This document shows positions 30,301 through 33,300 of a stretch of 64,000 bases of DNA, one piece after another. Every line of letters starts with the position of its first letter. Position 1 is the stretch's first letter. Source of the stretch: Escherichia coli (lineage in GTDB: Bacteria > Pseudomonadota > Gammaproteobacteria > Enterobacterales > Enterobacteriaceae); the NCBI RefSeq assembly GCF_044324785.1, contig NZ_CP172127.1; one strand, given 5' to 3'. The position numbers were made by a program.

Positions 30301-33300
30301 CTGGCGGTACGGGCTTAGGGCTGGCAATTGTTGAAACCGCCATTCAGCAGCATCGTGGCTGGGTTAAAGCGGAAGACAGCCCGCTGGGCGGTTTACGGCT
30401 GGTGATTTGGTTGCCGCTGTATAAGCGGAGTTAAACTCGGCGCAGGGCCGTCCCCTTCGGGGTCAAGGCAACAGGTCAGCACTGTGCGAACTGATACCCT
30501 CACCCCGGCCCTCTCCCTGAAAGGGCGAGGGGGAAAAACGTAGCCCTGTTCAGCAACGGAGCTGAGCACCGCTCCGGACAGTCCCCTCGCCCCTCTGGGG
30601 AGAGGGTTAGGGTGAGGGGAAAAATTCAGCACAATGCAAACGGCACTGCTCTCACCGGAAACCATGCCAGATTTCGTATTAAGACAGCCTTATTTTCCCC
30701 ACAACCGGCGGGAAAAATCTTCGATCTTGCCGCTCAGTCGGCGCTTTTGCATCGTCCGCGTCCAGCTTTTCGATAACCCGGCGGCGGAGAGTAAACGGTG
30801 ATACTGCTCGTCATCAAACGGCATATGCCATGCGATGGCGGCAGCCTCCTGCACGGTCACATCACTGACACGGGAAACCAACTCCAGCGGAGCATCAGCA
30901 GATACCAACCCTGGCGCAATCACGCTATACAACCACCCAACTTTACCCGTATTTTGCATCAACTGCGCTATATCGCTGATATCAAAATGGTAATTGAGTT
31001 TATAGCAAGGTGAGCGTGGCTGGCTGACCTGAATTAATGCCTCTCCCCAGCGGAAAATATCGCCAATATAAACATTACTTTCCGTCAGACCGTCGGTTGA
31101 GAGATTTTCGCCAAACGCAGGCGCAACAAACAACTCCGCCTGTTCCGGAAATTCCCGCGCCCAGTAGAGATAATGCTCACGAGGATAATGACACAGCGCT
31201 CTGTCTGGCCCGCCGTGAACCTTCTTCTCCGCCTGCTCGTCACCTTCCAGCCCCAGCTCCGTCAGCATCAACTCACCATCAACCTGGATTTTAGCAATTG
31301 CGCTGGGTTTGCCTTCGGGATAAGCCTGAATCTTGCCTGTGTATACATCAACCGGATATCGCATCTGTTCCCTCTCCACGAGAAATTTCCCCATTAGACC
31401 ATATTTATTTTATGTCAGGCGTGCTGTTTTCGCGGTAAGTATCCAGGCAAGAACTCAATAGCAAACCGGACGAACGTTAGTTCATCCGGCTGTGGGGATT
31501 AAGGAAGCAGGTTTATTTCACCGTACCTAAAATTTCGATTTTCGCTGCTCTGGCTTTGACTTTACGTGACCAGATAGAGGTAAGAATTGGCACCAGAATC
31601 GAAGTCACAATGACCGCCGTCGCGACCAGCGAAGTTGCTGCCGGAGCCATCGGTTTAAACGCAGGCACCATTTCAGCAATCAGCACAGGTGTCGCTACCG
31701 CGGCCCCTGCGGAACTGGAAGCGGCAATTCCGGCAGTGCCATCGCCACCGCCAATCAATTTATCGGCGATAATCAACGGAATACCGGTCACGATAATTAC
31801 TGCCACACCCAACAGGATCCCCAGCAAACCTGTCTGGGCAATTACAGTCAAATCAATGGTATTGCCCAGCGCGAAGGCAAAGAATGGAATCAGCGTCTGC
31901 ACCGCTTTGCTGAAAAATTCTCGTAATTCAGGGTCAAGGTTCCCAAGGGCAAAGCCCACCAGGAACGGTAATACTGCGCCGACGAAAACATGCGGTTCAA
32001 ACGAGGCAATCCCGGCAGTGCCCAGAATAATCATCGTCATGAGCGGCCCGGACTCCAATGACATCAACACAAATGCCCCAGCTTCTTCTTTTGTGCCGTA
32101 CTGCTGCATGATGGAAGCGTAAAGTCCGCCGTTGGTCATATCCATCGCCGCCACCAGCGCCAGCGTTGAAAGTCCGGCAAAGAATCCAACTTCAACACCA
32201 TGTTCCGGAATAATGCGCGAGGCAATTGCCGCAACCACCCACGCGACGGCAATTTTTGTTACCACCAGCGTACCGGATTTACGCAATACCGTTCCCGTCG
32301 CGCTTAATTTTATTGACGCCCCCATGCAAAAAAACCACACCGCCAGAATGGGCACCGTACCGGTAATCATCCCGTTGGTGAATGATCCAAAATATTTCCC
32401 CGCCTCCGGCGAGAAGGTGTGGCACAGTGCGCCAAGGAATAGCGGGACGAGCATCATCCCCCCCGGGATTTTCTCAATCGAGCGTTTTATCTGCATTTCC
32501 ATCACCTGTCGGCATATTTTTAAGGGCTGATGCGTAATTCCTCAATGGAGCATCAGTGTTGATGGAAACGAAGATAGACATTCATTTAATCAATAAAAGT
32601 GATCAAAATCACATCAATTGAAACACTGTTTTATTTTTATCGGATCATTGTTTTTATTTTGAAATTGATCACAAAAAAACCACCGCCGTTGGCGATGGTT
32701 CATTTTTTAAGCTGATATGCGGCGTAAACGCCTCATTGCAGCAGGCGGCAAATGATTATTTTTTCGCCGCGAAACGTGCCGCTGCTTCGTCCCAGTTCAC
32801 CACGTTCCAGAACTCTTTGATGTAGTCCGGACGGCGGTTCTGGAATTTCAGGTAGTAAGCATGTTCCCACACATCCAGGCCCAGAATCGGGAAGCCGGAA
32901 GCGCCAGAAATAGCTTCACCCATCAGCGGGGAGTCCTGGTTAGCAGTAGAAACCACCGCCAGTTTATCGCCTTTCAGCACCAGCCATGCCCAGCCGGAAC
33001 CAAAGCGGGAAGCTGCCGCTTTCTCAAATTCTGCTTTGAAGTTATCAACGGAGCCGAAGTCACGTTCGATAGCCGCTTTCAGGTCACCCTGCAGGGTGGT
33101 GCCTTTTTTCAGACCTTTCCAGAACAGGCTGTGGTTAGCGTGACCGCCAGCGTTGTTGCGCAGTACGGTTTTCTTGTCTGCTGGCAGCTGGTCCAGTTTG
33201 GTGATCAGCTCTTCAACCGGCAGGTTGGCAAATTCTGGCAGGCTTTCCAGCGCCGCGTTGGCGTTGTTGACGTAGGTCTGATGGTGTTTGGTGTGGTGGA

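Follow-up and report, generated by a model that had tools for sequence, protein, structure and literature searches.

In a stretch of 64,000 nucleotides from Escherichia coli (NCBI RefSeq assembly GCF_044324785.1, contig NZ_CP172127.1), here called the window, that is, the whole of the DNA that was analyzed, two near-identical, imperfectly palindromic repeats lie 3' of cpxA and 3' of rhaA, and their presence raises the questions of which repeat family they represent, how one element came to stand at two unlinked loci, and whether it serves the transcripts of the genes beside it. An earlier note, drawn from the sequence only, described them as copies of an interspersed 124-bp unit that probably act as transcript 3'-end structures, and put no confident name to the family beyond setting ERIC aside. 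The analysis described here provides a name: each copy consists of two BoxC units inverted tail-to-tail, a minus-strand unit of type B and a plus-strand unit of type A, with a 52-nt spacer between them. With regard to the two remaining questions, the account that we regard as very probable is that paired BoxC units sit at strain-variable slots as structured selfish or neutral DNA, with no dedicated function in the transcript.

The two repeats as inverted BoxC pairs

BoxC, also designated PIT (potential intrastrand triplex) or TMECO, is a family of G+C-rich, non-coding repeats that occurs in E. coli and numerous other bacteria, always between genes (Bergler 1992; Hoyne/Maher 2000; Holder et al. 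2015, PMC4666352). The original K-12 record gives a repeat of approximately 56 bp in 33 copies, and Holder et al. (PMC4666352) recognize 23 units in K-12, including five inverted pairs that always involve one type A and one type B unit. Used as a regular expression, the consensus taken from the latter work, CCCTCNCCC N3-6 GGGNGAGGG N3 GGGNGAGGG, matches in full at four places in the window, which are exactly the four arms of the two repeats (Table 1). The second loop reads CCG (type B) in both left arms and TTA (type A) in both right arms, the pairs are located strictly between genes, in the cpxA/yiiM and rhaA/rhaD gaps, and the copy 1 spacer opens with GGAAAAAC... and closes with ...GGACAGTC, in agreement with the inner flanks that are conserved in units of type B and type A. 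The right arm of copy 1 is identical to K-12 TMECO nos. 9, 16, 19 and 22 (Holder Table 1, PMC4666352). Furthermore, Table S8 of the same work (PMC4666352) reports a rhaA-rhaD pair in strains E24377A and SE11, in which a CTAC type-A arm stands 52 nt from a type-B arm, so that neither the family nor this particular pair is new. The earlier note was correct in setting ERIC aside; the family to which it put no confident name can be named, since the arms fit the BoxC/PIT/TMECO consensus.

The window pairs resemble the known family in consensus, A and B loops, intergenic siting, inverted A+B pairing and variability of the locus; nothing essential sets them apart, although K-12 itself lacks both and carries REP/BIME at both sites instead. 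The closest K-12 counterpart is pair 17+18 (lldD-trmL), which has the same tail-to-tail orientation and a spacer that likewise starts with AGAAAAA and ends with GGTC but differs in its middle, whereas the other four K-12 pairs are head-to-head with spacers of 16-27 nt. E. coli BoxC units also share a loose 3' tail, (G/T)A..A...GCAC..TG, and 5' flanks that read TTTTC(C/T) in type B and (A/C)(C/A)(A/G)GTC in type A.

The near-identity of the two copies is borne out by a gap-free alignment of the core pair (30497-30619 and 39530-39652), which displays 6 mismatches and no indels over 123 bp, or 95% identity; the repeat itself is therefore as the earlier note had it, with one surplus base at the 3' end of its 124-bp extent. 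The core begins with CCCTCACCCC and ends with GGGGTGAGGG in both copies, and includes the terminal dyad arms ccctcacccc...ggggtgaggg that had been read from the sequence. An independent repeat search of the whole window recovered the same pair as 30485-30624 and 39518-39657 at 92% identity, ranking second by length among the direct repeats of the window. Outside the 123-bp unit identity drops to approximately 65-75%, and these flanks resemble the loosely conserved tails that other BoxC units have in E. coli. Copy 1 begins 62 nt past the cpxA stop (30434), within the gap between the convergent cpxA and yiiM genes, while copy 2, immediately after a REP, falls in the interval from the rhaA stop (39464) to the rhaD start (39706). 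The interspersed, imperfectly palindromic and intergenic character of the repeat, as well as its siting 3' of cpxA and, beside the REP, 3' of rhaA, are thus confirmed. The same is true of the two ORFs (open reading frames) that had been considered spurious: both run on the minus strand across the repeats (30393..30665, 90 aa; 39447..39677, 76 aa), consist of low-complexity peptides encoded by BoxC, continue antisense into cpxA and rhaA, and are artefacts of the repeat.

RNA folding of the unit, which the earlier note had suggested as a check, yields a single, very stable long hairpin for each copy, with energies of -89.3 (copy 1) and -82.9 kcal/mol (copy 2) for the plus strand (z-scores of -9.1 and -8.5) and of -83.9 and -78.3 kcal/mol for the minus strand; across strands the z-scores range from -6.5 to -9.1, and none of 200 shuffled sequences folds equally well. 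For DNA, the fold energy is -40.4 kcal/mol (z = -6.1). Imperfect complementarity reaches approximately 10-20 nt past the arms, to roughly 30475-30641 and 39518-39663, and adds 14-18 kcal/mol, so that core and extended RNA folds of both strands together span -78 to -103 kcal/mol; in copy 2, the extended inverted-repeat arms (39518-39564 and 39617-39663) measure 47 nt and are 79% complementary. The outer left flank motif of copy 1 is also present in K-12 BoxC units, and a chance Rfam match of the hairpin type covers 30475-30641. The folding models employed consider Watson-Crick pairs only; according to Holder et al. (PMC4666352), the G-rich single-stranded consensus forms a purine-motif intrastrand triplex in vitro.

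Table 1. Coordinates of the parts of the two BoxC pairs and of the adjacent REP in the window.
Feature	Coordinates	Strand	Remarks
Copy 1 outer left flank	30475..30496		weakly conserved BoxC tail; pairs with 30620-30641; fold gain ~14 kcal/mol
Copy 1 left arm, BoxC/TMECO type B (second loop CCG)	30497..30531	-	regex match CCCTCGCCCTTTCAGGGAGAGGGCCGGGGTGAGGG
Copy 1 spacer, 52 nt	30532..30583		small internal hairpin at ~30547-30568
Copy 1 right arm, BoxC/TMECO type A (second loop TTA)	30584..30619	+	regex match CCCTCGCCCCTCTGGGGAGAGGGTTAGGGTGAGGG(G)
Copy 1 outer right flank	30620..30641		pairs with 30475-30496 in the extended fold
REP beside copy 2	39469..39503		separate from the BoxC pair; repeat family of the window also at 18329 and 25367
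Copy 2 outer left flank of extended palindrome	39518..39529		inverted-repeat search and fold
Copy 2 left arm, BoxC/TMECO type B	39530..39564	-	regex match
Copy 2 spacer, 52 nt	39565..39616		4 mismatches to the copy 1 spacer
Copy 2 right arm, BoxC/TMECO type A (first loop CTAC)	39617..39652	+	regex match; same sequence in E24377A and SE11 (Holder et al.)
Copy 2 outer right flank of extended palindrome	39653..39663		inverted-repeat search and fold

The paired architecture is also encountered well beyond E. coli. A scan of one genome per species (100,044 species), in which a type-B arm followed by a 35-65-nt gap and a further C-block was sought, returned at least 120 loci, and the matches listed come from Enterobacteriaceae, Chloroflexi, Verrucomicrobia, Planctomycetota, Nitrospirae, Alpha- and Betaproteobacteria. 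Among these matches, 74 of the 116 neighboring unit pairs are tail-to-tail A+B, a count obtained with a pattern biased to that orientation; their spacers have a mode of 38-41 nt and conserved ends, AGAAAAC... and ...ATCGGTC. In Pseudocitrobacter faecalis (L075:4679-5781, L064:3916-4274 and L077:1672-2209), BoxC units form tandem arrays of alternating A and B with a period of approximately 126 bp, in which tail-to-tail spacers of 38-40 nt alternate with head-to-head spacers of 19-20 nt, a layout like that of BIME arrays.

Strain variation at the cpxA-yiiM and rhaA-rhaD gaps

The 61-nt center of the pair was detected in 943 of 5,426 complete E. coli genomes (~17%), at 947 places, and nearly always once per genome; only 4 of the 5,426 carry two copies, among them strain N3, to which the window sequence is 99.3-99.5% identical. 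Five matches across the identity range were located: the one at 100% lies in cpxA/yiiM, and those at 93%, 88.5% and 87%, together with a degenerate partial match, lie in rhaA/rhaD. By extension from these five located records, the 157 genomes that match at 99% identity or more would carry the cpxA copy, and roughly 785 the rhaA-rhaD copy.

At both loci, strains differ by the exchange of whole segments, the alternative alleles holding 1-5 REPs or 92-bp BIME units. The cpxA-yiiM gap measures 255 bp in the window, 105 bp with two REPs in K-12, and 170 bp with three REPs in GN04171, and the comparison of alleles shows a substitution of the full 255 bp, not an interruption of them. This gap also contains a small CCCC-TTCG-GGGG hairpin at 30453-30464. 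Between rhaA and rhaD, the gap may measure 83 bp with one REP, be extended by one to four extra 92-bp BIME units (451 bp in K-12, 461 bp in Nissle), or hold a REP and a BoxC pair, and the junctions are constant in all of these forms (...CCTACGGGTCG on the left, AATT(T/A)ACAGGAAC... on the right). The REP next to copy 2 is the one repeat common to all E. coli rhaA-rhaD alleles examined; further copies of its family are found in the window at 18329-18363 and 25367-25401. In strain HH97, which has the same RhaA and RhaD protein sequences as K-12, the rhaA-rhaD gap holds a heavily degenerate BoxC pair with many small indels; the pair may be either a decaying copy or the product of assembly errors.

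Neither the comparison of alleles nor a search for flanking direct repeats revealed a target-site duplication or a clean empty site at either locus. Holder et al. (PMC4666352) described BoxC loci as hotspots of 'intergenic change', unusually rearranged between strains, and replacement of segments in the absence of duplicated targets and empty sites fits that description. The cpxA-yiiM and rhaA-rhaD gaps are interchangeable, strain-variable slots for BoxC pairs or REP/BIME. A vehicle was sought in other replicons: matches to the pair occur in 139 of 72,556 plasmid records, many of which are megabase replicons labelled as plasmids, and in 3 of 50,697 phage records. The pair is thus nearly absent from phages and from plasmids proper, which provides no evidence of a mobile vehicle and agrees with Holder et al. 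Two Campylobacter phage records, MG065686.1 and MG065691.1 (174 kb), display approximately 72% identity to most of the BoxC pair at three places each; such stretches are unexpected in an A+T-rich phage and may stem from contamination or misassembly.

The two window copies are paralogues of one BoxC pair. The rhaA-rhaD copy has the same sequence as its counterpart in strain E700025, and differs at 6 sites from the cpxA copy and at 3-4 others from the common B1-type allele (FORC_041, 2015C-3905); being thus intermediate between the cpxA copy and the common rhaA-rhaD allele, it could be ancestral to both or, alternatively, be the product of gene conversion.

These observations suggest a process in which BoxC pairs, being essentially selfish or neutral structured DNA, would be gained and lost by recombination or replication errors at sequences capable of forming hairpins or triplexes, and in which their effect on the cpxA, yiiM and rhaBAD transcripts would be at most that of a very stable stem-loop. 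A number of points weigh against this account. The formation of triplexes or cruciforms in vivo is not established, the in vivo footprint of Holder et al. (PMC4666352) being inconclusive; the notion that TMECO units cause the instability of their loci rests on correlation; the function of the two window copies can only be inferred; and the scan across bacteria favors tail-to-tail pairs, and its counts, among the matches listed, say nothing on relative abundance. In addition, the presence of a 123-bp unit at two unlinked loci with 95% identity, between flanks of much lower identity, requires some mechanism of copying.

BoxC and the DUF559 genes

A candidate for the origin of the pairs is provided by the repeats around genes of the DUF559 (YcjD) type. 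When 965 kb of sequence from the BoxC loci listed were searched with E. coli YcjD, five DUF559 ORFs were identified, and each of the five directly adjoins BoxC motifs, with a sense unit ahead of the gene and an antisense unit behind it, forming a head-to-head bracket. BoxC-like inverted repeats bracket YcjD-type DUF559 genes in the same order in many phyla, the sense unit standing immediately ahead of the start codon and the antisense one at the stop or beyond it (L017:1439-2059, L023:12938-13776, L107:13925-14640, the loci L138-L143, and E. coli K-12 L137:1700-2261). The DUF559 assignment was confirmed by Pfam with the YcjD-family profile (E = 1e-49), the closest solved structure to which is 3hrl, an uncharacterized 'endonuclease-like protein' (E = 3.7e-36); Steczkiewicz 2012 grouped DUF559/3hrl with Vsr and a group I intron homing endonuclease. 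The residues E..D..GGQH..D, the predicted catalytic site of YcjD, are conserved.

In a number of these genes the repeat is part of the coding sequence. Among the 120 best database matches to the YcjD-type profile, 104 of which are from outside E. coli, peptides encoded by BoxC were recognized at the termini of at least 54 of the 104 non-E. coli homologues and in none of 77 control ORFs; they read ...PSPPGRGVGGEG or ...RERAGVR at the N-terminus, and ALTPALSQGERE, PHPNPLPQGERG or SPSPQPSP at the C-terminus. Five homologues that lack such peptides were traced to their contigs, and all six loci concerned have a BoxC-like motif whose end lies 0-25 nt ahead of the start codon and an inverted motif that follows the stop at 0-31 nt, in variants that differ by lineage and with no such blocks elsewhere in the loci. 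A crude regular-expression control, which can only be considered a rough test, found 3 of 9 DUF559 ORFs flanked on both sides, compared to 4 of 1,473 other ORFs (Fisher p = 5e-6). The physical association between DUF559 genes and BoxC is shown by these data, and a functional dependence between the two is no more than possible. No paper linking DUF559 or ycjD to BoxC was found in the literature searched. Milman 2023 listed DUF559 genes as enriched for predicted programmed inversions, an enrichment that probably reflects the flanking inverted repeats.

In K-12, a BoxC remnant supplies the final codons of ycjD (...SPSP*). The next BoxC, a full unit of type A that is no. 9 of Holder et al. and lies beside fabI/envM, follows 154 nt downstream of the remnant, in the neighborhood where BoxC was first described, and between the two lies a 39-nt duplicate of the ycjD 3' end (L137 1821-1859 and 1927-1965). 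Tail-to-tail pairs are located just downstream of K-12 ycjD and of the DUF559 gene in L023. Two longer E. coli YcjD proteins (P0006 and P0024, 147-148 aa) have a C-terminus that runs through the remnant into the type-A BoxC (...APLGRGLG), which suggests a deletion between the duplicated 39-nt 3' ends. In another locus, a DUF559 ORF with BoxC-like flanks (L096:4479-5080) lies inside a 3.2-kb stop-free frame (2913-6107) that is N6-DNA-methylase/HsdM-like, seemingly as an in-frame insertion, with more BoxC-like units at ~5300-5370.

The distribution of ycjD among strains points in the same direction. According to Pugh et al. 2026, the gene occupies the fabI-sapF gap of phylogroups A, B1 and C, as well as of ST69 and ST182, while the other groups carry eefRABCD there. 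ST69 and ST182 belong to phylogroups D and E. The search for a DUF559 gene or its remnant in the 64-kb window was negative. When the strains are sorted by phylogroup, the TMECO counts of Holder et al. (PMC4666352) are 13-30 in A, B1 and C strains, 15 in UMN026 and 12-13 in 042 (both D), 10-11 in O157:H7 and O55:H7 (E), 6-7 in F strains and 0-2 in B2 strains, figures that are consistent with a dependence of BoxC on ycjD but confounded by phylogeny.

The most favorable reading of these data for mobility is that the pairs are non-autonomous elements of the MITE or REPIN type, copied or moved in trans by YcjD, a DUF559 Vsr-like nuclease. Two inverted structured units and a spacer within one hairpin, as observed in the window pairs, constitute a REPIN-type layout; the presence of the unit at two unlinked loci with sharp drop-offs in identity at its ends, the patchy distribution of the pair among strains, the bracketing of YcjD-type genes, the remnant in K-12 ycjD and the higher counts in the phylogroups that carry the gene (13-30, against 0-13, or 15 in UMN026, in B2, D, E and F, which mostly have eefRABCD) would all be expected from such an activity. 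However, both loci are devoid of target-site duplications and clean empty sites, E. coli contains very few copies, DUF559 proteins are not known to act on BoxC, and the strain correlation is burdened by phylogeny. The genes, moreover, are bracketed head-to-head and the window pairs are tail-to-tail, so that the latter are not simple gene-less cassettes, and the window holds no DUF559 gene. Taken together, these points make mobilization in trans by YcjD rather doubtful.

A broader proposal, which we put forward tentatively and consider possible but not probable, is that BoxC units are the cis partners of YcjD-type DUF559 genes, either as terminal inverted repeats or as target sites, in a system analogous to RAYT/REP that would be built on a PD-(D/E)XK nuclease and extend over many phyla, and of which solo units and pairs would be gene-less descendants whose number depends on the nuclease. 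The bracketing of YcjD-like genes and the counts per strain suggest such a partnership between gene and repeat, like that of REP/RAYT. Both REP/BIME and the REPIN-RAYT system consist, like BoxC, of short structured intergenic repeats, present singly or as inverted pairs that form long hairpins and occupying the same slots; the alternating orientation of the Pseudocitrobacter arrays has its equivalent in both, and REPIN-RAYT also involves a single-copy nuclease-type gene flanked by its own repeats. The sequences are nevertheless unrelated, BoxC lacks the GTAG/CGTC tag, the gene that it flanks encodes a PD-(D/E)XK, Vsr-like DUF559 protein and not a Y1 (HUH) transposase, and no mobilization of BoxC is known; a paper linking BoxC to RAYT or REPIN was not found in the literature searched. 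In the preferred account of structured selfish or neutral DNA, repeats on the flanks of YcjD-type DUF559 nuclease genes are the probable source of the window pairs. BoxC has been known since 1992 and has no accepted function or mechanism of propagation; the partnership, if true, would make both its function and its spread directly testable, and would account for the presence of a near-identical 35-nt motif in distant phyla. The gain for the window is modest, namely a name for the repeat and an explanation for two spurious ORFs.

Transcript effects and other repeat families

The suggestion that the repeats are functional transcript 3'-end structures, that is, terminators or stabilizers of the cpxA and rhaA messages or of the opposite-strand yiiM message, could draw on the very stable hairpins predicted on both strands, on the location of both copies just 3' of coding regions, and on the fact that the same slots are filled by REP/BIME in other strains, since mRNA-stabilizing roles are established for REP/BIME. 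Termination itself fares poorly. No run of T follows the hairpin on either strand of either copy: on the plus strand, the core hairpins are followed by AAAAATTC and AACAAGCC, and on the minus strand by TATCAGTT and TGACAGCC, none of which is the sequence expected of an intrinsic terminator. A scan for terminator and promoter consensus sites gave no hit at copy 2, and its hits at copy 1 were limited to small hairpins that are unrelated to the repeat and lie beyond the core. Furthermore, rhaBAD is one operon, with rhaD downstream of rhaA; copy 2, which stands upstream of rhaD within it, cannot be a full terminator, and strong termination at this point would be harmful. The published assays also argue against such a role, in that Holder et al. 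(PMC4666352), in their account of earlier work by Maher and colleagues, report that PIT elements block DNA polymerase in vitro, with no effect in vivo and no promoter or terminator activity. Any function in the transcript would be dispensable, given that neither site holds the pair in the majority of E. coli genomes. The transcript 3'-end structure of the earlier note thus finds no direct support and is unlikely; given the extreme stability predicted for the RNA hairpin, a REP-like barrier to 3'-exonucleases is possible.

That the repeats could belong to another enterobacterial family (ERIC/IRU, REP/BIME or RSA), or represent a small RNA or a small protein, in keeping with a size of ~124 bp that approaches the 127 bp of ERIC, minus-strand ORFs of 76-90 aa and weak Rfam matches, is very improbable in light of the searches below, which covered ERIC, REP, Rfam families and coding sequence. 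The two ERIC primer sites (ERIC1R and ERIC2) have 0 matches in the window at up to 3 mismatches, as the exclusion of ERIC in the earlier note had anticipated; ERIC/IRU shares with BoxC its length, its imperfect palindrome and its intergenic, strain-variable siting, but its sequence is unlike. The REP consensus (a GCCGGATG...CATCCGGC stem-loop) is absent from the unit and present only beside copy 2, where the REP displays a weak naRNA4/REP-type Rfam match. The Rfam check that had been proposed for the unit returned only generic hairpins below threshold, the best being MIR1437, a plant miRNA precursor and generic long hairpin, at 37.7 bits against a gathering threshold of 168. Coding sequence was rejected, the ORFs being exclusively antisense and made of repeat-encoded peptides. 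MITEs such as Correia/NEMIS and RUP have, like the BoxC pairs, terminal inverted repeats, a size of ~100-200 bp, RNA that folds into a long hairpin and a patchy distribution; the inverted arms are indeed present here, but the pairs have no target-site duplication, clean insertion or empty site, or transposase partner, the alleles differ by replacement of whole segments, and the spacer is not conserved across the wider family. A REPIN with its cognate RAYT was likewise rejected, as the gene flanked by BoxC encodes a DUF559 protein and no Y1 transposase.

Elsewhere in the window, a 152-nt direct repeat with 80% identity was observed at 1787-1938 and 2938-3089; its second copy lies within a minus-strand ORF of 1,409 aa (2422-6651), and the first is located just past an ORF of 153 aa (1949-2410).

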